Origin: a virus
Taxonomy: Duplodnaviria; Heunggongvirae; Uroviricota; Caudoviricetes
DNA: 43,524 bases
Reading direction: 5' to 3' (one strand)
Virus record (IMG/VR): IMGVR_UViG_2531839666_000032
The translations under genes and the position numbers were made by a program. Below, in pieces: positions 9,173-43,524 of the stretch (the stretch's first letter is position 1; every line of letters starts with the position of its first letter). Below the pieces are notes generated by a model, which worked only from the letters and a program-made list of their open reading frames with translations, did not search any database and was not told where the DNA came from.

Positions 9173-9871
9173 TTACTGCGAAAGTTTGTTAATGGAAAGG
9201 AAGCCGCCAAAGTTGCCGACGTTATTGCGGAACTTACAACCGCTCAGGCATTTGCTGCATTTATCCTTCGTGATATCGGACGTCGGCTGGTCATATTCAT
9301 CCGCGACCGCCGGACCGTGATAACCGCACTCATCGCCGCGATAGGTCCAGGTGCAGGTGTTGGCCAGCATGATACGTCCCGGAAAAACAGCGCCATCCGT
9401 TTCCGTCGGCGTGGACAGTACAAAGGAGGCACTCACCGCGCTCAGTTCGCTGCACTGCTCGATGCGCCAGCGGCTGATCACCTCCTGCTCCGGATCGGCG
9501 TCGCTGTTTCCGTTGACGAAGTTCACCGCATCCAGAAAACGGGCGTAAACCTTACGCCGGACCACCGTTCCGCCGACCAAACTCTGCAGATCTTCCGCCA
9601 TCCCGGTGACCATACCGTACAGGTTAGAAACCGTCAGCGTGGGGCGCGTACTGGTGCCTTTGCCATTCAGTTCAAGACCACTCCCCTGAATGGGATATGG
9701 CTGATACTGTCGCCCCTGCCAGGTGACCGGCTCACCTTTTTCGTTCTGCTCATTACAGAAAAAATAACGTTCTCCACCGACCTCTGTCAGGTCGATTTCC
9801 CATAGCACCACGCTGGCCGACTGCTCCGCACGGGTGCATTCATTCAGTGTTTCCTGCCGGATATCCTGCAT
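9173..9871 (-). CDS. L: Tail tip protein L
   Basis: 232 aa, MQDIRQETLNECTRAEQSASVVLWEIDLTEVGGERYFFCNEQNEKGEPVTWQGRQYQPYPIQG. Confidence 0.9.
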   Translation of the reverse strand: MQDIRQETLNECTRAEQSASVVLWEIDLTEVGGERYFFCNEQNEKGEPVTWQGRQYQPYPIQGSGLELNGKGTSTRPTLTVSNLYGMVTGMAEDLQSLVGGTVVRRKVYARFLDAVNFVNGNSDADPEQEVISRWRIEQCSELSAVSASFVLSTPTETDGAVFPGRIMLANTCTWTYRGDECGYHGPAVADEYDQPTSDITKDKCSKCLSGCKFRNNVGNFGGFLSINKLSQ

Positions 9872-10200: not shown

Positions 10201-12758
10201 CGTCCACCTCCGGAGAACAGACCACCATCGCGCATCTGCCCGGTCACAACATCCATTGCCGCCTTACGGGCTACGTCATAAACAGCCTTCAGTGCCTGTG
10301 GCCCTATCTGACCGTTCGTGCCGTCGTTGTTAATCACCACATGGTTATTCTGCTCAAACGTCCCGGACGCCTGCGACCGGCTGTCAGCCAGACTGCCCGG
10401 TGTACCGACATAACCACCGGTGGCATAGCCGCGCATCAGCCGGTAGAGATTCCCCACGCCAATCCGGCTGGTTGCCTCCTTCGTGAAGACAAATTCACCA
10501 CGGTGAACAATCCCCGCTGGCTCATATTTGCCGCCGGTTCCTGTGAATCCTCCGGTTGCAAAATGGAATTTCGCCGCAGCGGCCTGAATGGCTGTACCGC
10601 CTGACGCGGATGCGCCGCCACCAACAGCCCCGCCAATGGCGCTGCCGATACTCCCGACAATCCCCACCATTGCCTGCTTAAGCAGAATTTCTGTCATCAT
10701 GGACAGCACGGAACGGGTGAAGCTGCGCCAGTTCTGCTCACTGCCGGTCAGCATCGCTGCCATATTCTGTGCAATACCATCAAAGGTCTGCGTGGCTGCA
10801 CTTTTTACCTGCGACATACTGTCCGTGGCGCTCTCTTCCCACTCACTCCAGCCGGACTTCAGGCCTGCCATCCAGCTCCCGCGAAGCTGGTCTTCAGCCG
10901 CCCAGGTCTTTTTCTGCTCTGACATGACGTTATTCAGCGCCAGCGGATTATCGCCATACTGTTCCTTCAGGCGCTGTTCCGTGGCTTCCCGTTCTGCCTG
11001 CCGGTCAGTCAGCCCCCGGCTTTTCGCATCAATGGCGGCCCGTTTTGCCCGTTGCTGCTGTGCGAATTTATCCGCCTGCTGCGCCAGCGCGTTCAGGCGC
11101 TCCTGATACGTAACCTTGTCGCCAAGTGCAGCCAGCTGGCGTTTGTACTCCAGCGTCTCATCTTTATGCGCCAGCAGGGATTTCTCCTGTGCAGACAGCT
11201 GGCGACGTTGCGCCGCCTCCTCCAGTACCGCGAACTGACTCTCCGCCTTCCACAAATCCCGGCGCTGCTGGCTGATTTTCTCATTTGCTCCGGCATGCTT
11301 CTCCAGCGTCCGGAGTTCAGCCTGAAGCGTCAGCAGGGCAGCATGAGCACTGTCTTCCTGACGATCGCCCGCAGACACCTTCACGCCGGACTGTTTCGGC
11401 TTTTTCAGCGTCGCTTCATAGTCCTTTTTCGCCGCCGCCATCAGCGTGTTGTAATCTGCCTGCAGAATTTTCCCGTCCTTCAGTGCCTTGTTCAGTTCTT
11501 CCTGACGGGCGGTATATTTCTCCAGCGGCGTCTGCAGCCGTTCGTAAGCCTTCTGCGCCTCTTCGGTATATTTCAGCCGTGACGCTTCAGTATCGCTCTG
11601 CTGCTGCGCATTTTTGTCCTGTTGACTCTGCTGTTCAGCCTTCTTTCTGGCGGCTTCAAGCGCAAGACGGGCCTTTTCACGATCATCCCAGTAACGCGCC
11701 CGCGCTTCATCGTTAACAAAATAATCATCCTTGCGCAGACTCCAGATGTCGTCCGCTTTCTTAAACGCAGCCTCTGCCTTAATCAGCATCTCCTGCGCGG
11801 TATCAGGACGACCAATATCCAGCACCGCATCCCACATGGATTTGAATGCCCGCGCTGTCCTGTCTGCCCAGGTCTCCAGCGTACCCATGTTCTCTTTCAG
11901 GCGGCGGGTCTGGTCATCAACCCCTTTCGTCGCGGCCTCGTTCGCCGCCTGCAATGCCCCGGCTTCATCGCCGGAACGCTGCAACTGAGCAACATACGCA
12001 ATCTGCTCCGCCGTCACGTTATGGAACTGGCGTGCCATCGCTGTCAGCCCTGACGTCGGGTCTGTGGTCAGCTTCCCGAAGGCTTCAGCGACCTTGTCCA
12101 CCTCCACGCCGGATGCAGAGGAGAAACGCGCCACACTCTGGCTGATGGATGCAATCTGAGCCTCACCGCTTACCCCCGCCTTAACCAGTGCGCTGAGTGA
12201 CTCGCTGGTCTGGTTAAACGTCAGCCCTGCCGCCTGCCCGGCTCTGGACAGGACCAGCATACGATCTGCCGTCAGCCCCGACTGATTGCCGGAAAGGACC
12301 AGCGTTTTGTTGAAATCGGACAGGGTTGAGTTGCCCTGATACCAGGCATACGCCAGCGCACCGGTCGCCACCGCCAGCGAGGTGGCCCCCACCATCGGCA
12401 GGGTGATCGCACCGGCAAGCCCCCTGAACATGGGGATCATCCCGCCGAAGGAGTCCTTAACCTGACCACCCTGTTGCAGCAGGATCAGCCACGGACTTTG
12501 CCCGCCTGCAAGCTGCGTGGCCACGTCGGTGAACTGTGCAGGCAGCATACGCATGGCGGCTTTATACTGCCCGACGGAAATCCCCGCTTTCTGTGCAGCC
12601 AGCGCCTGTCGGCTCAGCGACTGTTCAACGACTGCCGCTGTTTTTTTCGCATCACTTTCCGTACCGGAAAAATGACGCCTGACTCTGGCCATCTGCTCGT
12701 CAAATCTGGCCGCATCCAGACTCAAATCAACGACCAGATCGCCTACCGGTTCAGCCAT
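10197..12758 (-). CDS. H: Tail tape measure protein H
   Basis: 853 aa, same length as lambda H; coiled-coil-rich centre and Gly-rich C-terminus. Confidence 0.95.
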   Translation of the reverse strand: MAEPVGDLVVDLSLDAARFDEQMARVRRHFSGTESDAKKTAAVVEQSLSRQALAAQKAGISVGQYKAAMRMLPAQFTDVATQLAGGQSPWLILLQQGGQVKDSFGGMIPMFRGLAGAITLPMVGATSLAVATGALAYAWYQGNSTLSDFNKTLVLSGNQSGLTADRMLVLSRAGQAAGLTFNQTSESLSALVKAGVSGEAQIASISQSVARFSSASGVEVDKVAEAFGKLTTDPTSGLTAMARQFHNVTAEQIAYVAQLQRSGDEAGALQAANEAATKGVDDQTRRLKENMGTLETWADRTARAFKSMWDAVLDIGRPDTAQEMLIKAEAAFKKADDIWSLRKDDYFVNDEARARYWDDREKARLALEAARKKAEQQSQQDKNAQQQSDTEASRLKYTEEAQKAYERLQTPLEKYTARQEELNKALKDGKILQADYNTLMAAAKKDYEATLKKPKQSGVKVSAGDRQEDSAHAALLTLQAELRTLEKHAGANEKISQQRRDLWKAESQFAVLEEAAQRRQLSAQEKSLLAHKDETLEYKRQLAALGDKVTYQERLNALAQQADKFAQQQRAKRAAIDAKSRGLTDRQAEREATEQRLKEQYGDNPLALNNVMSEQKKTWAAEDQLRGSWMAGLKSGWSEWEESATDSMSQVKSAATQTFDGIAQNMAAMLTGSEQNWRSFTRSVLSMMTEILLKQAMVGIVGSIGSAIGGAVGGGASASGGTAIQAAAAKFHFATGGFTGTGGKYEPAGIVHRGEFVFTKEATSRIGVGNLYRLMRGYATGGYVGTPGSLADSRSQASGTFEQNNHVVINNDGTNGQIGPQALKAVYDVARKAAMDVVTGQMRDGGLFSGGGR

Positions 12759-13185
12759 ACCGGACTCCTCCTGCGATCCCTTCTGATACTGTCATCAGCA
12801 TTACGTCATCCTCCGTCATGTCCGCCACATCCGGGGAAGTAGGGATAACTTCATTCCCGTCCGGGCCAAAGCGGACACCTCCGGCAAGCCCTGCCGCTTT
12901 CTGCATCAGCACATCATCTTCAGGCTCTTCGTCAGCCTCGCGCCGGTTCAGCAGACTGAAATCCAGCGGATGCATATCCGGATCGCTGAAAAACAGGCTG
13001 AGCACGGTGTATGTCAGCCCGGAAAAGTGCATATCCAGCAGAACATCATGAAAATAATGGGTACTGTAAAAGCGGTGCCAGTCGGCATACTCCGTGGATG
13101 ACATCCCGGCAAGCATGGCGCGCCAGTCGGGTCGCCCCATCTCACGCGCCAGTTTCAGGGCAAAACTCAGCTCACCGTCGAACAC
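12751..13185 (-). CDS. T: T reading frame of the G-T tail assembly chaperone, expressed by -1 frameshift from G
   Basis: ORF in the -1 frame relative to G overlapping the G 3' end; slippery GGGAAAG present. Confidence 0.8.
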   Translation of the reverse strand: MFDGELSFALKLAREMGRPDWRAMLAGMSSTEYADWHRFYSTHYFHDVLLDMHFSGLTYTVLSLFFSDPDMHPLDFSLLNRREADEEPEDDVLMQKAAGLAGGVRFGPDGNEVIPTSPDVADMTEDDVMLMTVSEGIAGGVRYG

Positions 13186-26133: not shown

Positions 26134-27231
26134 ATGAAAAAATTAACAGTGGCAATTTCTGCTGTAGCTGCATCAGTACTGATGGCGATGTCTGCTCAGG
26201 CAGCTGAAATTTATAATAAAGACAGTAACAAGCTGGATCTGTACGGAAAAGTTAATGCCAAGCACTACTTTTCCTCTAACGATGCAGATGATGGTGATAC
26301 TACTTATGTTCGTCTGGGCTTCAAAGGCGAAACCCAAATCAACGATCAGCTGACTGGTTTCGGTCAGTGGGAATATGAATTCAAAGGCAACCGCGCTGAA
26401 TCTCAAGGTTCCTCCAAAGACAAAACCCGTCTTGCATTTGCAGGCCTGAAATTCGGTGACTACGGCTCAATCGATTACGGCCGTAACTACGGTGTAGCAT
26501 ACGACATCGGTGCGTGGACTGACGTTCTGCCAGAATTCGGTGGCGATACCTGGACCCAAACAGATGTGTTCATGACTGGTCGCACCACTGGTGTTGCAAC
26601 CTATCGTAACAACGACTTCTTTGGTCTGGTTGATGGTCTGAACTTTGCTGCTCAGTACCAAGGCAAAAACGATCGTAGCGATTTCGATAACTACACCGAA
26701 GGTAACGGTGATGGCTTCGGTTTCTCTGCTACCTATGAATACGAAGGGTTCGGTATCGGTGCAACTTATGCGAAATCTGATCGTACCGACACTCAAGTTA
26801 ATGCAGGGAAAGTTCTTCCTGAAGTATTTGCTTCCGGTAAAAATGCAGAAGTTTGGGCCGCAGGTCTGAAATATGACGCTAACAACATTTACCTGGCCAC
26901 TACCTATTCTGAAACCCAGAATATGACTGTATTTGCTGATCACTTCGTTGCTAATAAAGCTCAAAACTTCGAAGCTGTTGCACAATATCAGTTCGATTTC
27001 GGTCTGCGTCCGTCCGTTGCTTACCTGCAATCTAAAGGTAAGGATCTTGGAGTATGGGGCGATCAGGACTTAGTCAAATATGTTGATGTAGGTGCAACCT
27101 ATTACTTCAACAAAAATATGTCTACTTTCGTTGATTACAAAATCAACCTGCTTGACAAAAATGACTTCACTAAAGCACTCGGTGTAAGCACTGATGACAT
27201 CGTTGCTGTAGGTCTGGTTTACCAGTTCTAA
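26134..27231 (+). CDS. nmpC: Phage-encoded OmpC/OmpF-type porin (NmpC / Lc type), apparently intact
   Basis: 365 aa, signal peptide [24 protein letters not shown]-terminal VGLVYQF; lies between Q and S on the strand opposite to the late operon, as nmpC does in DLP12. Confidence 0.9.
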
Positions 27232-29392: not shown

Positions 29393-29523
29393 AAACGTCC
29401 CCGTTTAGCGCAGAAGTCACCGGAGTTGTTCAGGCTCCGATGACATGATTATGGCGAGTTGATTATCGCAAATCAAAGGTTTGAACCGCCCCGGTTTTCC
29501 GGGAGAGTGTTTTATCTGTGAAC

Positions 29524-30423
29524 TCAGGCTGCCAGACCACCATTTCCGATGGAAGCGTAATATGCCTTTTCCGCTTCTGCCGGCGGGATATGACCCAGTC
29601 GTTCCAGCAACCGTCGGTTATTGTACCAGTCCACCCACGTCAGTGTGGCCAGTTCCACTTCGGCGCGGTTTTTCCAGCTCTTACGATGTATCACCTCCGC
29701 TTTATAAAGTCCGTTGATGCTCTCCGCCATCGCGTTGTCATATGAGTCGCCTGTGCTGCCGGTTGACGCCAGCAACTCTGCATCCTTAAGCCGCTGAGTG
29801 TATGCCAGCGACACATATTGTGACCCCTTATCTGAGTGATGGATGGTGCCCGACGGGCGACGGGCCCACAGCGCCTGCTCCAGTGCATCCAGCACGAACG
29901 TCGTTTTCATCGACGATGAGACCCGCCAGCCCACAATGACGCCGGCGAACACATCGATGATGAACGCCACGTAAGCGAAGCCCTGCCAGGTGCTCACATA
30001 CGTGAAGTCAGCCACCCACAGCTGGTCGGGGCGTTCTGCCACGAACTGGCGGTTCACCCGGTCACCCGCAGCGGCTTCTTTCCGGCTGACTGTGGTGCGG
30101 ACCTTTTTACCCCGGCGCACACCGGCAAGCCCCATCACCTTCATCAGCCGTTCTACTGTGCACCTGGCCACGGTCACCCCCTCACGCAACAACTGGCGCC
30201 AGACCTTGCGCACACCGTACACGCTGTGGTTTTCATCGTACACGCGCTGTATCTCCGGCTTCAGCAGGTCATCACGCTGTGCCCGCTGACTGCGTTTATC
30301 CGGATGCCGTTGATGCGCACGATGCCGGTAATACGTTGACGGGGCGACAGCCAGCTCGTGGCATACCGGTCCGACCCCGTGCGCACCACGCAGGGTATCC
30401 ACCAGAGGCGCTATTTTTTCCAC
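29524..30423 (-). CDS. IS629 OrfB, DDE integrase-type transposase catalytic subunit
   Basis: 299-aa ORF, ...[34 protein letters not shown]...[10 protein letters not shown]...; overlaps orfA in the -1 frame, consistent with the IS3-family frameshift. Confidence 0.9.
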
Positions 30424-30737
30424 AGGCGGTCGAACTCCGCCTTCGCAAAATACGCGGAAGCCTGGCGCAGGATATCGTTGCTGCGGCGCAGTTCGCGGTT
30501 TTCACGCTCCAGTTCCTTCAGACGCTGACGTTCAGTGGTGCTCAGTCCGCCGTCACCTGCACCGGCATCGCGCTCATACTGACGCAGCCAGGTACGCAGG
30601 GTCTCAGGCGTACAGCCGATTTTAGGGGCGATGGAGCTGATGGCCGCCCACTGCGAGTCATAGTCATTCTGGCTTTCGATAACCATACGAACGGCCCGCT
30701 GACGGACCTCAGGGGAAAAGCGCGTATTTTTAGTCAT
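30411..30737 (-). CDS. IS629 OrfA, helix-turn-helix transposase subunit
   Basis: 108 aa [64 protein letters not shown]...[36 protein letters not shown]. Confidence 0.9.
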
Positions 30738-30794
30738 CCTGTTTACCTCTCTCTCAAGGAGTTTAGTCTCCAGGATTCCCGGGGCGATTCAGTT

Positions 30795-31151
30795 TTAATT
30801 GTGCTTTATTCCTTCAAGCGTTGCCTTCATACCAACCAAAGAAATGTTTAGCTCTCCAACTTTCTCAGGGCTATATAATTCAGAATGAAGCCAATATTCT
30901 GATTTATCTAAACATCTTTTAGCCAGCTCTCGATCAAAGTCTACGACTTGGGAAGACGCTTCATACCAAAGCCTATAAAGTTTTTCTTCTTCGTTTGGGT
31001 TATTAGGCTCACCACGTTTTAATTTTTCAGTATATAAAATTGTTGAACAAATCGCAGGAGTTAATCCAGTGATTGCCCTCTGCCGCAGATCGGATTTGTT
31101 TGTTATCCACCCCAACAGACGATCTCCCATCCATGTGATAATTGTATCCAT
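30795..31151 (-). CDS. Hypothetical protein (118 aa), AT-rich cargo gene
   Basis: ORF MDTIITWMGDRLLGWITNKSDLRQRAITGLTPAICSTILYTEKLKRGEPNNPNEEEKLYRLWYEAS with AAGAAGGG Shine-Dalgarno; no family recognised; stop codon is 3 bp from the IS629 end. Confidence 0.55.
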   Translation of the reverse strand: MDTIITWMGDRLLGWITNKSDLRQRAITGLTPAICSTILYTEKLKRGEPNNPNEEEKLYRLWYEASSQVVDFDRELAKRCLDKSEYWLHSELYSPEKVGELNISLVGMKATLEGIKHN

Positions 31152-31612
31152 GCTTTAGCCCTTCTTAGTAAATAGTGTGTAGGGCGACTGAAGGACCGAG
31201 TTTATGCTTTTTCGCATTGCTTTCAGTTAGTACACCGGTATCGCACCGGAAACAATCCTACGGCAAATTGGTTGTCTGACCTCTCGGTTTTTCGTGCATT
31301 AACCGATACCCACTACAGTCTCGGCGAAAGCTGCACACCCCCAGGGTGTACTGGTAGCACTCGGCACAGCCTAGCACGCCACTTTCTTCTCACTATCCAG
31401 TCTAATTTTATCCCCTAGTCAGACACTCAGATGTAGTGCTCCGCAGCGGCATGCGGGGGAATACAAAAACTCGGACAAAATTGGGCCCTCCTTTTTGAAT
31501 CACTCGCGGGGATGTAGTTATTAATACATGGAAAAAGATCTGTTTTCAAATCCAACATTATATGGTTTCAATACCACGGGGTGGCTATGTGTTTCTCATT
31601 GTTAATTGGAAT

Positions 31613-31936
31613 CTACTGTAATCGATCCGAACGTAAATGCGGCAAAACTCGACTCCACTTATCATCCTGCCACGGCCGGAATTTTACATGTGCCGTTTCT
31701 CTGGCAAGGATTGCCTGTGCCTTATTGAGTATCTGGGGATATTCTTGCTCGATAGAAGTGAAGCGACCAGCTTCACGATGCTCCGCAACCTGAAGAAGAG
31801 GAGTAACGTTCTGGTAGGTAATTAACATCACATTCCCTGCTCGCCATAACCAGGCGAGTGTGCAAAGTTCGTTATCAGTGAATTGTTTTGTGATTGGGGA
31901 TTGTTGAACTGCTAGAACGAGAACGCCAGCATCCAT
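31613..31936 (-). CDS. Hypothetical protein (107 aa)
   Basis: ORF MDAGVLVLAVQQSPITKQFTDNELCTLAWLWRAGNVMLITYQNVTPLLQVAEHREAGRF with AGGGA Shine-Dalgarno; no family recognised. Confidence 0.5.
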   Translation of the reverse strand: MDAGVLVLAVQQSPITKQFTDNELCTLAWLWRAGNVMLITYQNVTPLLQVAEHREAGRFTSIEQEYPQILNKAQAILARETAHVKFRPWQDDKWSRVLPHLRSDRLQ

Positions 31937-32047
31937 TGGCAGTCCCTATAGTAAAACCATAGCTCAGGACGCTTCGTTCAGGATAGATAATTTTATTGTA
32001 CTTACCTAACTTTCTTACTATAGCACGGTTGAAAAAGTGATTATTAC

Positions 32048-33574
32048 TCAAAAATAAACCTCACCATCAACCATATATTTGAGAGCACTTATCGCCTGCT
32101 GGGCGGATATTACTTTCATTAAAGGATAGTGTTTAAAAACAATGCCATTCATAAAATAGATATCACAGCTTTTATTATCCGTATTAATTATGATTTTTTC
32201 GAATGTTTTATAGGCAAGTGTACGGCATAACTCTCGTCCATTTTTACTGGTTAAGTCAATAGCATAAAAATCACTGAATGAATTTACACCTTTACTCTTC
32301 AAAGTTTTCAATGATACCGAAGCCCTTCTTAATTCCTTATCTAATAGTCTTATTTTCTCTGCTATAGCGGTAACTTCAGGCGCGACAGACAATGCAACGA
32401 TTAAATTATTAATTTTCATCTGAAGCTCAATAATTTTTAACTCTAAAGTTTCATTAGCATCTTTCTTGTTTTCAACTGGTTGAATTTTGCTACAATTAAA
32501 AAGCAATTCATTAATGATATTATAATCAACCAAATCTCTTTTTATTGATGGCCTGTCACATCGATGTAATCTTCTCATCGGACAAACATAATAGCCATGC
32601 AAACTTCCAGATACCGCATGAACAATCATGGTATTACCACAAGCCTCACACTTCATAACTGTTCGAAGTAGATTTATTAGCATAGGATTCTTGCTACTAT
32701 TGCTAATACCAAAAGGTGCCAACCGAATTTCCTGTACAGCGTAAAACAAATCATCTGATATGACTCTGGGATAATAGCCAGCGATTTCACTTATCCCTTT
32801 CCCTCTTGCACGATATGAAGGTACGCATATACCTATCAGAGCTTTATTCGCTAATAATTTTTCAATTACAGAAGGTCCCCATGCACTTTCTTTTCCTGAG
32901 AAATTCTTTACAGCATGATCATTTAAATACTTGGCTATTGCATTCAATGAGCGCCTTTCCATCCTGAGTTTAAAAATTAGCTCAATAGTTTTCACCCTGT
33001 CGGGGTCTGGAACAAAAGCCGTTCTTTTGTCATCTAAGGAGAGCCATCTCGGACAAGACGCCGTCATAATCGTACCTGATTCCAGTGCATCCTGCCGTTT
33101 TTTCTTCCATGATAATTTAACCCGACTTGACTTTATCTCGCTTTCTTCATTTGCCCTTTGTGCTATAAGTATGGCTTTTATTAATGAATATGGCTCATTC
33201 AAAGAGTCAATATTATAGACTGTATTGTCGCAAAGAGTTATAACATCAATACCGTGATTCAAAATTAATTTCAGACGTTCAATCGCTTCACCGACTTTTT
33301 CTCTTGAAAGTCTGTCCAGACTTTCAACTAACAATGTAGTTCCTGGCAATATATAACCATGCTCTATAGCATCTAAAAATTCCGAAAAAGCTCCTGATTG
33401 TGCATGCTTTCCTTTGAATGCACTTAATCCTAAATCTTCATATGTTATGGTATCAAGATAATAATCACTATTTACCTTTAACCATTCAGCAATAAGTCTT
33501 CTCTGTCGGTTTAATGAGTCACCAGACATCTGACCTGGTGATGAAAATCGCATATATGCTATGGCTTTTTTCAT
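32048..33574 (-). CDS. ybcK: Large serine recombinase (resolvase-type N-terminal domain, recombinase domain, Cys-rich zinc ribbon), YbcK-like
   Basis: 508 aa MKKAIAYMRFSSPGQMSGDSLNRQRRLIAEW...; Cys cluster CEACGNTMIVH...YYVCPMRRLHRC; AT-rich. Confidence 0.85.
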   Translation of the reverse strand: MKKAIAYMRFSSPGQMSGDSLNRQRRLIAEWLKVNSDYYLDTITYEDLGLSAFKGKHAQSGAFSEFLDAIEHGYILPGTTLLVESLDRLSREKVGEAIERLKLILNHGIDVITLCDNTVYNIDSLNEPYSLIKAILIAQRANEESEIKSSRVKLSWKKKRQDALESGTIMTASCPRWLSLDDKRTAFVPDPDRVKTIELIFKLRMERRSLNAIAKYLNDHAVKNFSGKESAWGPSVIEKLLANKALIGICVPSYRARGKGISEIAGYYPRVISDDLFYAVQEIRLAPFGISNSSKNPMLINLLRTVMKCEACGNTMIVHAVSGSLHGYYVCPMRRLHRCDRPSIKRDLVDYNIINELLFNCSKIQPVENKKDANETLELKIIELQMKINNLIVALSVAPEVTAIAEKIRLLDKELRRASVSLKTLKSKGVNSFSDFYAIDLTSKNGRELCRTLAYKTFEKIIINTDNKSCDIYFMNGIVFKHYPLMKVISAQQAISALKYMVDGEVYF

Positions 33575-33756
33575 GGTGACACCTGCTAACGTATGCTTTT
33601 ATAAACCTTAGTGGTGGGATATAATTTTTGTTTAATTTTTATTTAAAAAAACAATTAAGGTCACATTATCTTGAATATACAACAATAATCGTATTGCAAT
33701 TTTCTTACGCCATAATCTTGAAAGCACAAAAGAACACATAAAAAAATAAAGACATT

Positions 33757-33799
33757 AACAAAAAGCATAAAACGAGGCTCATATAAATATAAGAGCCTC
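33757..33799 (-). terminator. Rho-independent terminator after emrE
   Basis: GAGGCTC / GAGCCTC stem with a 12-nt AT loop, followed on the minus strand by GTTTTATGCTTTTT. Confidence 0.6.
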
Positions 33800-33830
33800 C
33801 ATATTTTAGTCGTTTAGAAACAAATTATTT

Positions 33831-34163
33831 TTAATGTGGTGTGCTTCGTGACAATAGATTAATAACCAACACACCGGCACAAATCAACATCATGCCTATA
33901 ATGGCTGGCAGGTCCAGCCGTTGGCCGAAAAGTCCCCATGACAGTAAGCTAATCAGGACAATACCGACTCCTGACCAGATAGCATAAGCAATCCCTGTAG
34001 GAATATAAGCCAGCGTCTGAGCTAATAACCAGAATGATGCACAATAACAAATAATTGTACCAACAGATGGCCATAACCGTGTAAAACCTTCTGAAAACTT
34101 CATTAAGGTTGTACCAATGACCTCTGCAAGTATTGCACCACCAAGATAAATATAAGGGTTCAT
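33831..34163 (-). CDS. emrE: Small multidrug resistance (SMR) efflux transporter EmrE
   Basis: 110 aa from MNPYIYLGGAILAEVIGTTLMKFSEGFTRLWPSVGTIICYCASFWLLAQTLAYIPTGIAYAIWSGVGIVLISLLSWG; four TM helices; the ORF track extends 18 codons upstream. Confidence 0.9.
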   Translation of the reverse strand: MNPYIYLGGAILAEVIGTTLMKFSEGFTRLWPSVGTIICYCASFWLLAQTLAYIPTGIAYAIWSGVGIVLISLLSWGLFGQRLDLPAIIGMMLICAGVLVINLLSRSTPH

Positions 34164-34230
34164 AGCATATTCTTTCCTGTTCAAACTGGAGAGAATTGTA
34201 CTACAGTTTGAACTCAACTCACCTGTTTCA

Positions 34231-34533
34231 TCATTGTGTACCCATTGATGTTCTTTTATATACCCTCAATACCCGTTTCATCGCGGCACTCTGGCGACAC
34301 TCCTTAAAAATCAGATTCGTGCTCACCTTTCCTTCCCGTTCTTCTCTGGTAGCGAACCGGTAATACACCGTTCGCCAGACCTTACCATCAACGACCAGGA
34401 TTCCTGCCCGCGCCATTTTAGCCGCAGCCTGATTTATGCTGGTTACGGTTGCGCCTGTTACCGCGGCAACGTCCTGTGCACAGAAGCTCTTATGCGTCCC
34501 CAGGTAATGAATAATTGCCTCTTTGCCCGTCAT
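34231..34533 (-). CDS. ren: Ren protein
   Basis: 100 aa MTGKEAIIHYLGTHKSFCAQDVAAVTGATVTSINQAAAKMARAGILVVDGKVWRTVYYRFATREEREGK. Confidence 0.85.
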   Translation of the reverse strand: MTGKEAIIHYLGTHKSFCAQDVAAVTGATVTSINQAAAKMARAGILVVDGKVWRTVYYRFATREEREGKVSTNLIFKECRQSAAMKRVLRVYKRTSMGTQ

Positions 34534-40519: not shown

Positions 40520-40677
40520 AGCATCCTCACGATAATATCCGGGTAGGCGCGATCACTTTCATCTACTCCGTTACAAAGCGAGGCTGGGCATTTCCCGGCC
40601 TTTCTGTTATCAGAAATCCACTGAAAGCACAGCGGCTGGCTGAGGCGATAAATAATAAACGGGGGCTGTATGACTGA
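40510..40677 (+). CDS. orf60a-like small protein
   Basis: 55-aa [58 protein letters not shown] found by hand; overlaps the exo stop and the methyltransferase start. Confidence 0.6.
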
Positions 40678-41227
40678 TTTCACCGGAAGCAATACTCCTG
40701 CCGAACATCGCGACAGCTGGCGCACACCACCAGAGATTTTTGCTGCGCTTAATGCAGAGTTCGTTTTTCAACTTGATGCTGCCGCCAGCGAAAAAAACCG
40801 ACTATGTCGGCTTTTTATCTCACAGGAGCAGAACACATTAACCACTTCATGGCCTGAAGCAATGGGATATGCCTCTGGTTATGTCTGGTTGAATCCACCA
40901 TACAGCAATATTTCCCCTTTTGTGAAAAAGGCAGCCACTGAAAACAAATTCAGTAGTGTGGGATGTGTAATGTTATTGCCTGCTGACACATCTGTCGGAT
41001 GGTTTCATGAAGCGATACAAACCGCCAGTGAGGTCAGATTCATCACGGCAGGACGACTGGCATTTATTAACCCACTCACTGAGAAACCCGTCAGTGGAAA
41101 TAATAAAGGCTCGATGCTCATTATCTGGCACCCATACCCCCGTACACACTGCCACTTTACGACCGTTGATCGTGGAGAGTTGATGGCGTTCGGCTCAAGG
41201 ATTCTTGCCCGTCGGGAGGCTGCATGA
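40670..41227 (+). CDS. Orphan phage DNA N6-adenine methyltransferase
   Basis: 185 aa with catalytic motif IV NPPY (VWLNPPYSNISPFV); no adjacent restriction endonuclease gene. Confidence 0.8.
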   Translation: MTDFTGSNTPAEHRDSWRTPPEIFAALNAEFVFQLDAAASEKNRLCRLFISQEQNTLTTSWPEAMGYASGYVWLNPPYSNISPFVKKAATENKFSSVGCVMLLPADTSVGWFHEAIQTASEVRFITAGRLAFINPLTEKPVSGNNKGSMLIIWHPYPRTHCHFTTVDRGELMAFGSRILARREAA

Positions 41228-42162: not shown

Positions 42163-42505
42163 GGCCTGTCAGTTTCTTAAGATATCCAGACCAACCGCCA
42201 CCAACTGGATACGAACAGGCCGCCTACAGGCAACACGTAAAGATCCAACCAAGCCAAAATCTCCTTACCTCACAACACGGCAAGCCTGCATTGCGGCGCT
42301 TCAGTCTCCGCTGCATACTGTCCAGGTGAGCGCGGGTGATGGCATAACAGAGGAAAGAAAATGTCACTCTTCCGCAGAAATGAAATATGGTATGCCTCGT
42401 ATTCGCTCCCGGGCGGGAAACGAATTAAGGAATCTCTTGGCACAAAGGACAAGCGGCAAGCTCAGGAGTTGCACGACAAGCGAAAAGCAGAACTCTGGCG
42501 AGTAG
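42134..42505 (+). CDS. xis: Excisionase-like protein (AlpA/Xis-type HTH); the frame runs about 145 nt into int
   Basis: [38 protein letters not shown]...; position just upstream of int; true C-terminus uncertain. Confidence 0.5.
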
Positions 42506-43524
42506 AAAAGCTAGGGGATTTACCTGATGTCACTTTTGAAGAGGCCTGCCTAAGATGGCTTGAGGAAAAAGCTGATAAAAAATCTCTCGATTCAGATAAA
42601 AGCCGGATTGAGTTCTGGCTTGAACATTTTGAGGGTATAAGGCTTAAAGATATCTCGGAGGCAAAGATTTACTCTGCTGTAAGCAGAATGCATAACAGAA
42701 AGACGAAAGAAATATGGAAACAGAAAGTTCAGGCCGCCATCAGGAAAGGTAAAGAACCGCCTGTTTATGAACCAAAGCCAGTATCAACTCAGACAAAGGC
42801 AAAGCATCTTGCCATGATAAAGGCCATTCTCCGTGCTGCAGAACGCGACTGGAAGTGGCTGGAAAAAGCGCCTGTCATCAAGATACCAGCGGTCAGAAAC
42901 AAGCGAGTCAGATGGCTGGAAAAGGAGGAAGCAAAACGCCTTATTGATGAGTGCCCCGAACCACTGAAATCTGTCGTCAAGTTTGCGCTGGCAACTGGTC
43001 TGAGAAAGTCGAACATCATAAATCTGGAATGGCAACAAATCGACATGCAGCGACGAGTTGCCTGGGTGAATCCAGAAGAGAGCAAATCAAACCGCGCCAT
43101 TGGTGTGGCGCTGAACGATACCGCCTGTAAAGTGTTGCGTGATCAAATAGGCAAGCATCACAAATGGGTGTTTGTACATACCAAGGCGGCTAAGCGAGCA
43201 GATGGAACATCAACGCCTGCGGTCAGGAAGATGCGCATCGACAGCAAGACATCATGGCTATCAGCTTGTCGTCGTGCAGGAATTGAAGATTTCCGTTTCC
43301 ATGACCTCAGACACACCTGGGCAAGCTGGCTGATTCAGTCAGGCGTCCCATTATCAGTGCTTCAGGAAATGGGCGGATGGGAGTCCATAGAAATGGTTCG
43401 TAGGTATGCTCACCTTGCGCCTAATCATTTGACAGAGCATGCGAGGAAAATAGACGACATTTTTGGTGATAATGTCCCAAATATGTCCCACTCTGGAATT
43501 ATGGAGGATATAAAGAAGGCGTAA
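42361..43524 (+). CDS. intD: Tyrosine integrase of the DLP12 IntD type
   Basis: 387 aa [53 protein letters not shown]...; catalytic-region motifs [11 protein letters not shown] and VRRYAHL; stop at the window end. Confidence 0.95.

Follow-up and report, generated by a model that had tools for sequence, protein, structure and literature searches.

A large serine recombinase gene, an antirepressor-like remnant and a candidate structured RNA: probably separate pieces of one cargo slot in a DLP12-like prophage of Escherichia coli

Introduction

In the DLP12 locus of Escherichia coli K-12, ren in the nin region is followed by emrE, ylcJ, ybcK, ybcL and ybcM, and the same module occupies the same position after ren in the DNA considered here, a stretch of 43,524 nucleotides (nt; IMG/VR record IMGVR_UViG_2531839666_000032, hereafter the window) that represents a DLP12-like lambdoid prophage of E. 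coli. The interval in question (positions 30795–33574) carries three open reading frames (ORFs) on the minus strand, namely ybcK, which encodes a predicted large serine recombinase of 508 amino acids (aa; 32048–33574), an ORF of 107 aa (31613–31936) and an ORF of 118 aa (30795–31151), and ahead of the last lies a candidate structured RNA (about 31186–31514). In the DLP12-type copy found in phage PhiR34_1, the ybcK product is 99.6% identical in amino acids to that of the window, and the two arrangements part no more than about 40 bp beyond the ybcK stop codon: ybcL and ybcM follow there, whereas a truncated antirepressor gene, the structured RNA and the 118-aa gene follow in the window, which also has a frameshift in ylcJ and an insertion of an IS3-family element ahead of ylcH-ybcN.

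The recombinase invites comparison with the phage serine integrases (SPbeta SprA, Bxb1, phiC31 and A118/LI), with which YbcK shares the domain order, the catalytic serine and arginine residues, the four zinc cysteines and full-length structural matches, at a sequence identity of only 14–20%. Unlike these enzymes it possesses an extra C-terminal alpha/beta domain, and unlike their genes ybcK does not lie beside an attachment (att) site at the edge of the element, its phage using a tyrosine integrase instead. The 107-aa ORF compares with P22 Ant and the BRO-family antirepressor-like proteins, of which it keeps the P22AR_C domain and lacks Bro-N. Structured cis-acting leaders of horizontally acquired operons include HK022 put, the Bacillus EAR processive-antitermination RNAs and riboswitch-type leaders. 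The RNA of the window is like them in being a structured RNA between a promoter and downstream genes, in lying in a phage early region full of terminators and in being conserved independently of the gene that follows; it differs in being much larger (about 330 nt, with 18 helices and 7 branch points) and in resembling no Rfam 15 family in sequence or model.

The best overall explanation of the interval is probably that three separately inherited pieces share a cargo slot between ren and ninB and do not constitute one system. Gene content, domain architecture, independent inheritance, purifying selection and RNA covariation are direct observations and are given as such below. The protein-coding content is already catalogued, since it comprises the known DLP12-type ybcK locus, a fragment of an antirepressor family and a PHROG orphan, and what is new in the interval is only the unannotated conserved structured RNA before the orphan gene. 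A previous reading made from the sequence alone had placed the three ORFs correctly, and the RefSeq annotation of E. coli FHI_NMBU_11, which is 100% identical to positions 30738–33830 (3.1 kb), has the same three coding sequences; that reading overlooked the RNA, which is the sole undescribed-looking feature here. Recognizing the patchwork spares effort that would otherwise go into testing a nonexistent three-gene "system".

A Mosaic Slot between ren and ninB

Every sampled E. coli locus with ybcK has the order ren-emrE-(ylcJ)-ybcK, while the downstream neighbours vary, emrE-ylcJ-ybcK having been seen with at least five different ones. The slot of the DLP12-type phage PhiR34_1 holds emrE-ylcJ-ybcK-ybcL-ybcM; in Perceval and 4A7, emrE-ybcK is accompanied by an oppositely oriented alpha/beta hydrolase gene; in O157:H7, ylcH-ybcN comes almost at once after ybcK; in NCTC9100, ybcK is followed by a truncated ant gene of 99 aa and a gene of 169 aa; and FORC_041, phage Turner and others have the arrangement of the window. 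IdasGreatGrand, which is without emrE and ybcK, carries a full-length antirepressor-like gene of 202 aa, the RNA spacer and the 118-aa gene in this slot, and PhiR5_1 carries a 249-aa "Rha" version of the antirepressor-like gene, followed by a gene other than that in IdasGreatGrand. This comparison of related prophages and phages bears out the expectation that the position is a variable one, as the content between ren and ninB alternates and the pieces occur apart. The further proposal of a single island or candidate system made up of the recombinase and both small ORFs is not supported, since the three pieces are inherited independently.

The joints between the pieces have no common site. Homology 3′ of ybcK, as measured by blastn, ends at 32009 in the DLP12 type, at 31923 in the ant module and at 31765 in the Perceval type, three different breakpoints and therefore no shared point of insertion, and the outer joints at about 34258–34288 (in or just after ren) and at 29477–29485 (before ylcH) are the same with or without ybcK. 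A repeat search for att-like direct or inverted repeats at the ends of the ybcK module gave only short, chance-level matches. The prophages that carry this module adjoin different host genes and have different tyrosine integrases, with icd as the neighbour in one locus (L023) and ybhC in three others (L026–L028). Judged from these sequence comparisons, the pattern is one of ordinary lambdoid mosaicism through recombination in conserved flanking genes, and not of site-specific insertion.

The AT-Rich emrE-ylcJ-ybcK Module

Base composition draws the boundary of the module in a different place from that originally proposed. The interval had been described as markedly AT-richer than its surroundings, which is true of ybcK (GC content 0.354; 0.28 at third codon positions, GC3) and of the 118-aa ORF (GC 0.384, GC3 0.32) when these are set against a GC content of 0.518 for the whole window and a GC3 of 0.52–0.59 for ren, P and ybcN, but untrue of the 107-aa ORF (GC 0.472, GC3 0.43) and of the 461-bp spacer before the 118-aa gene (GC 0.462), both of which are near the phage background. 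The true AT-rich island is emrE-ylcJ-ybcK, at about 32009–34257, which extends beyond the interval first singled out and is probably a foreign module.

The first gene of the module is emrE (33831–34163, minus strand; GC 0.42, GC3 0.35), which is always linked to ybcK and encodes an efflux pump of the small multidrug resistance (SMR) type with 110 aa (Pfam Multi_Drug_Res, 4.8e-35), as in the RefSeq annotation of the identical genome. The longest ORF at this place has 128 aa and begins with a TTG at 34217, the annotated and conserved start being the ATG at 34163, and a 13-nt inverted repeat at 34179–34213 lies between ren and this ATG. Behind emrE is a putative terminator-like hairpin (33760–33800, minus strand), composed of GGAGGCTC, a 12-nt loop, GAGCCTC and a T-rich tail, which was read straight from the sequence; our consensus scan omits loops of more than 8 nt. 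The small ORF ylcJ (33632–33782, minus strand; RefSeq, with Pfam YlcJ matching an intact copy) is frameshifted in the window, and its region forms the leader of ybcK, with a GC content of 0.27. Within the ylcJ region we also noticed a 19-nt direct repeat (33664–33682 and 33711–33729, 79% identical, spaced by 47 bp; on the sense strand TTGTATATTCAAGATAATG and TTGTGCTTTCAAGATTATG) that may bind a protein or, in DNA so rich in AT, may have arisen by chance.

In K-12, the ybcK leader is reported to contain a Rho- and NusG-dependent terminator (t_ybcK) that keeps ybcK silent (PMC4150792). Because of the hairpin after emrE, this published terminator and the AT-rich leader, ybcK is most likely silent in the lysogen, and the protein would most likely be made only when N-antiterminated early transcription from pR reads through.

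YbcK as a Large Serine Recombinase

The statement that this phage encodes a large serine recombinase although it already has a tyrosine integrase (42361–43524, at the window edge; Pfam Phage_integrase, 5.5e-47) is well founded. YbcK contains three Pfam domains, Resolvase (residues 4–161, 5.4e-19), Recombinase (191–284, 2.3e-14) and Zn_ribbon_recom (302–357, 7.9e-8), and in an alignment of 23 family members the residues Y7, R9, S11, Q15, D87, R88 and R91 are invariant, as are the zinc cysteines C309, C312, C331 and C339. The catalytic residues align with Y6, R8, S10, Q14, D67, R68 and R71 of what we take to be the gamma-delta resolvase sequence. The AlphaFold2 (AF2) model, with a mean predicted local distance difference test (pLDDT) score of 78, has the catalytic domain, a long E helix, the recombinase domain, the zinc ribbon and a coiled-coil hairpin (373–427, made of helices 373–397 and 401–427), followed by the extra C-terminal alpha/beta domain at about 444–507. 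A sequence search of the Protein Data Bank (PDB) with phmmer gave no chain below 1e-3; the top matches of the model in Foldseek are the integrases of SPbeta (9dxd_A, 8.5e-18), Bxb1 (9iu2_A, 8.4e-14) and phiC31 (9tep_A, 1.2e-13), and the Listeria A118/LI integrase is also matched (4kis_C, E 1.4e-9). Sequence and predicted fold thus make YbcK a large serine recombinase that is complete and has kept its catalytic site.

It is also a maintained one. The copy in the window and that in Perceval differ by 39 synonymous and 12 non-synonymous changes, and because the ratio of non-synonymous to synonymous substitution rates (dN/dS) is 0.077 (dS 0.13), the protein is under strong constraint. The gene is present in 1424 of 5426 complete E. 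coli genomes, nearly full length in 1398 of them, and the emrE-ylcJ-ybcK module occurs in 1424 of these genomes and in 12 sequenced coliphage records, such that about a quarter of complete E. coli genomes, together with sequenced coliphages, carry an intact recombinase under strong purifying selection. Our literature search found no functional study or recombination assay of YbcK; overexpression of ybcK has been reported to give a sabinene-tolerance phenotype (PMC7181518).

Where the Relatives of YbcK Lie

The position of its relatives supplies a concrete hypothesis for the role of YbcK, as the nearest of them sit where integrases sit. In Atlantibacter, a relative with 59% identity (L007, 8001–10432) is the last gene of a prophage with a Mu-like tail, with 540 bp between it and the 3′ end of the gene for tmRNA (ssrA-smpB), a position suggesting that the YbcK clade includes serine integrases that target ssrA. 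The Erwinia relative (52%) is at a prophage end before lepA, those of Ewingella (49%) and Pantoea (52%) are at prophage ends beside host DNA, and the Yersinia relative (56%) closes a lambda-like prophage that has a P2-like prophage as its direct neighbour. Other relatives are placed differently: one with 42% identity lies inside the nin region of a Pantoea dispersa prophage (L011), one with 60% inside the nin region of a metagenomic lambdoid contig (L014), and one with 44% on an IncFII plasmid. Because several relatives occupy prophage ends beside host DNA, the enterobacterial clade to which YbcK belongs appears to consist mainly of prophage integrases, and the copies in nin regions appear to be displaced members with an intact enzyme.

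The contig L014 deserves particular attention, since its recombinase is 83% identical to the Atlantibacter protein at the end of a prophage. Direct repeats of 229 bp (82.5% identical; 9623–9851 and 12609–12831) enclose the segment in which this recombinase gene lies with KGG and DinI genes. Each is a copy of the 5′ end of a DUF1367 gene; upstream, that gene breaks off at codon 60, and downstream it is intact. The repeats could be the footprint of a gene-restoring insertion, in which case recombinases of this kind could move small cassettes into phage genes, an explanation that the E. coli data do not require. A SIR2_2 gene is located a few kb upstream of the segment.

On the preferred view of three separate pieces, YbcK would still perform recombination of the serine-integrase type (attP × attB) on some pair of sites, as an accessory or alternative integration function left from a serine-integrase module, and would not act jointly with the 107-aa and 118-aa ORFs. 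Some observations weigh against this. An integrase gene would be expected beside its own att site at the boundary of the element, and ybcK of the window is internal to the prophage; in a BLAST comparison of the non-coding flanks of eight YbcK homologues nothing was shared with the window, the only match being 68 bp just upstream of the start codon in L007 and L014. Because the repeat and flank searches thus yielded no substrate site for YbcK, its description as an active integrase draws only on sequence integrity and selection. Moreover, given the homologues in the nin regions of L014 and of the Pantoea prophage, a specific nin-region role or a targeted insertion would be possible.

Two alternatives start from the same observations, and both seem unlikely to us. 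In the first, YbcK would be the integrase of a small mobile cassette, composed of ybcK and adjacent cargo such as emrE, that inserts site-specifically into genes of lambdoid nin regions, with the truncated ant gene as its scar. The presence of the 60% and 42% relatives in the nin regions of unrelated lambdoid prophages speaks for such a cassette, as do the DUF1367 repeats of L014, which fit an element that restores its target gene, and the 83% identity of the L014 and ssrA-side recombinases, which means that the gene has recently changed position; in the window, too, a truncated gene abuts ybcK. Yet the E. coli module always comes after ren, its upstream boundary is a mosaic joint that is also that of ybcK-less phages, and the three downstream breakpoints share no motif. 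The 5′ half of ant is missing and not displaced, which indicates replacement and not simple insertion, the module ends have no repeats and its flanks no similarity to those of the homologues, and homologous recombination in the flanking P/ren and ybcN is sufficient to explain its spread.

The second alternative, which we likewise hold to be improbable, makes YbcK a second functional integrase with which DLP12-type phages lysogenise elsewhere when the site of the tyrosine integrase is occupied or absent. An intact protein under strong purifying selection, retained in 12 sequenced coliphage records, would be expected of such an enzyme, some members of the clade are in the integrase position at a prophage end, and ybcK belongs to the early rightward operon and would therefore be made in every infection. 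However, ybcK is internal in every E. coli locus that was inspected and at the prophage/host junction in none; it is the tyrosine integrase gene that adjoins the prophage boundary instead (at icd in L023, at ybhC in L026–L028 and at the window edge here), and neither the repeat search nor the flank comparison found an attP-like site.

An Antirepressor Remnant

The sequence-only reading had found no recognisable family for either small protein and had named membership of ordinary phage families as an outcome that would count against it. A profile search places the 107-aa ORF in just such a family, so that the reading gives way in part, and profile and structure searches give the 118-aa ORF no Pfam family and no informative fold match. 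The only Pfam match of the 107-aa ORF is P22_AR_C (1.1e-15), which is present as a complete C-terminal domain, and Bro-N is missing. When the ORF is aligned with the 202-aa protein of IdasGreatGrand and the 249-aa "Rha" protein of PhiR5_1, both of which have Bro-N and P22_AR_C, it turns out to consist of 9 novel N-terminal residues and the last 98 residues of the parent protein; the junction lies at about 31923, the first nine codons come from the join with the ybcK module, and the DNA is 88–97% identical to the full-length genes of both phages. With respect to the pairing of Bro-N (or ANT/KilA-N) with P22AR_C, the ORF has only the second member, and it is accordingly a fragment of a family member and not a complete one.

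The 107-aa ORF is a 5′-truncated Bro-N/P22AR_C antirepressor-like gene, cut when the ybcK module joined and replaced its 5′ half. It need not be a dead relic: dN/dS is 0.21 between the truncated ORF and the full-length copies and 0.27 between the full-length copies, so that this comparison detects no relaxed selection, and because the former value is no higher than the latter, the truncated ORF may still be expressed and useful.

A Candidate Structured RNA before the 118-aa Gene

In the 461-bp spacer between the 107-aa and 118-aa ORFs, approximately 380 bp before the 118-aa gene are conserved across genera, with invariant runs that are longer than those in the protein-coding part, and the sequence further upstream is unalignable. 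The spacer includes a sigma-70 promoter-like site (31520–31549, minus strand; −35 TTGAAA at 31549–31544, −10 ATTAAT at 31525–31520), which among homologues takes the form TTGA(A/T)A, a spacer of 17–18 nt and T(T/A)AAT, the TTGA and T.AAT being invariant in 19 of them. It is followed by the candidate structured RNA, on the same strand. RNAalifold, applied to 12 distinct sequences, predicts 91 pairs, of which 15 show compensatory double changes. In this structure 97.8% of the cells are paired, as against 34–47% when the 3′ partners are slid by 1–3 columns, and pairs with double changes number 16 (70 cells), as against 1–3 in the slid controls; the covariation score of 0.244 compares with 0.05 in the controls and is reached in 0 of 500 column shuffles. 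The addition of seven metagenomic copies (19 sequences in all) gives the same picture, the compensatory pairs numbering 15–17 over the two alignments. Because several G-U pairs are invariant, the strand can be identified as that of nin transcription.

On this evidence the element of about 330 nt is a candidate structured RNA with conserved base pairs beyond those of the alignment controls, and it would be either a 5′ leader or a free-standing non-coding RNA upstream of the 118-aa gene. There are counterarguments. The promoter-like site is weak by consensus in the window and falls below the threshold of the scan, the folding energy of the single sequence is no better than that of shuffles (z = −0.32), and no homologue falls below 70% identity, few lineages being represented (effective sequence number 1.04).

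Could the conserved 380 bp instead be a site acting at the DNA level, for protein binding or recombination, or else a small protein gene? The annotators of phage Turner called two small ORFs in the stretch, and the unremarkable minimum free energy of the single sequence is compatible with such a view, which we nevertheless rate as very unlikely. The small ORFs are interrupted by stop codons or unconserved in homologues (in the window, TAG, TAA and TGA break up the frame that L084 and L060 keep open), and there are invariant runs of more than 40 nt without third-position variation. The variation that does occur is concentrated in helices as compensatory pairs (the 16 pairs and 70 cells mentioned above), and the numerous G-U pairs that never vary would become A-C mismatches if the opposite strand, or duplex DNA, were the functional form.

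The RNA seems to have gone undescribed. A scan of positions 31100–31650 against Rfam 15 assigned no family and gave only a chance snoRNA match (E 8.3), RefSeq has no annotation at its position in the 159 of 5426 complete E. coli genomes that contain the spacer RNA, and a literature search with literal RNA fragments and keywords returned no relevant paper on it. With a covariance model derived from this alignment, the window gives a single match, and loci of the DLP12 type, of the Perceval type and of other homologues give none. Exact-pattern motif scans of a collection with one genome per species gave no match, pattern scans of viral (IMG/VR) and metagenome sequences did find copies, and two Klebsiella phage records contain a copy that is 79% identical. 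A large and well-supported RNA that is absent from Rfam and from annotation is unusual in E. coli prophages, which have been studied heavily.

Two ideas about the RNA were discarded. Resemblance to a type I-E CRISPR repeat, as we assume that repeat to read, was considered because UCCCCGCG and GGGGAUAAA look like its halves; the stretch corresponding to the handle of the CRISPR RNA is variable and takes part in the pairing of helix 1, and about 90 nt lie between the two halves in the RNA. A type III toxin-antitoxin system was dropped as well, there being no tandem repeats and the same RNA preceding unrelated genes.

Exchangeable Cargo behind the RNA

The unit made up of promoter and RNA precedes different genes in IMG/VR and metagenome contigs. 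Besides the 118-aa gene, these are a 66-aa deletion derivative of it, a gene for a two-transmembrane protein of 178–191 aa with terminal hydrophobic segments, genes for proteins of 183 aa and 177 aa, a pair of genes encoding 95 aa and 162 aa, and a DUF1367-like gene. The alternative cargo proteins have no credible Pfam match, and the five that were tested are not in PADLOC. A hydrophobic protein of 74–75 aa (MAHKVKK...) recurs at about 0.7–1.2 kb 3′ of the RNA, after different cargo (L110, L117, L118), in contigs from outside E. coli, where the cargo slot seems to end with it.

The RNA is the constant element here and the gene behind it the exchangeable one. The cassette to which the 118-aa gene belongs is probably self-contained and consists of a conserved promoter-like site, the structured RNA of about 330 nt and a cargo gene, and on the simplest reading the RNA would be a long leader acting in cis to govern whichever cargo follows; in the window no terminator separates the RNA from the start codon of the 118-aa gene. 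A constant RNA in front of swappable orphans suggests a general way for prophages to express or regulate accessory cargo. Set against the leader reading is the consideration that the variety downstream may reflect an RNA gene that borders a hotspot, and not regulation. We would go further only tentatively: that the RNA belongs to an undescribed class of phage RNAs and, as a conserved promoter-plus-leader "expression platform" where a cargo slot of enterobacterial lambdoid prophages begins, controls exchangeable orphan genes by antitermination, sensing or stabilisation, is possible, although on present evidence we would sooner doubt it than rely on it. Were it true, candidates for the genes under its control would include those of membrane proteins and of possible effectors of abortive infection or exclusion.

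The 118-aa Orphan

The 118-aa ORF is evidently a real, conserved gene. In Obesumbacterium, Enterobacter and metagenomes it has homologues of equal length that are 51–79% identical, with 44 invariant columns, and in both contexts inspected, one each in Obesumbacterium and Enterobacter, the gene is in a lambdoid nin region without a nearby recombinase. The protein has no Pfam match, and its PHROG families are without assigned function. The AF2 model (pLDDT 75.7) is all helical, with four helices, and because its matches in the PDB and BFVD are only generic four-helix bundles (best E 0.28), the function cannot be read from the fold.

The 66-aa deletion derivative (about 137 bp shorter; phrog_8527) is found in many E. 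coli prophages, with IMG/VR loci L062–L066 and L093 and metagenome loci L119 and L127 as examples. Upstream of it the RNA is intact and 98–99% identical; the RNA has therefore been kept when the protein was lost.

Prophage Setting and Occurrence of the Whole Block

In the RefSeq annotation of FHI_NMBU_11 the order is O, P, ren, emrE, ylcJ (frameshifted), ybcK, a "P22AR C-terminal domain-containing protein", a hypothetical protein, an IS3-family transposase, an ORF of 33 aa, ybcN, ninE, ybcO, rusA, ylcG and quuD. The block is thus correctly placed between ren/emrE and ylcH-ybcN (ninB), except that an insertion of 1.3 kb had been overlooked, namely an IS3-family insertion sequence (29486–30791, minus strand; orfA of 108 aa and orfB of 299 aa, Pfam HTH_Tnp_1 and rve) with an ALIL frameshift pseudoknot (Rfam ALIL, 95 bits). 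This element separates the block from ylcH-ybcN and is not part of the cargo; phage Turner has the block at 98.7% identity and lacks the element at that point. Its GC content of 0.59 accounts for the abrupt change in composition on the left side of the block.

The whole block occurs in 91 of the 5426 complete E. coli genomes, as near-identical copies (98–100% identity) of a single phage lineage. A search of the YbcK, 107-aa and 118-aa proteins against PADLOC-DB v2 gave no match at E ≤ 0.1. That these three adjacent, co-oriented ORFs in a variable cargo slot make up one undescribed defence, superinfection-exclusion or anti-defence system is hardly credible, in spite of the SIR2-domain gene in the same region of the related prophage L014 and the recurrence of the three-gene arrangement in the 91 genomes and in phage Turner, when those 91 cases are copies from one lineage, ybcK has five other downstream neighbours, prophages of Obesumbacterium and Enterobacter and the E. 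coli phage IdasGreatGrand have the 118-aa gene with its RNA and no ybcK, the 107-aa ORF is what is left of an antirepressor-like gene and PADLOC has no match.

Two further accessory genes of the prophage lie away from the interval: one for an NmpC/OmpC-type porin (26134–27231, plus strand), found in the late region and oppositely oriented, and one for a Dam-family N6-adenine methyltransferase (40670–41227, plus strand) in the early left operon.

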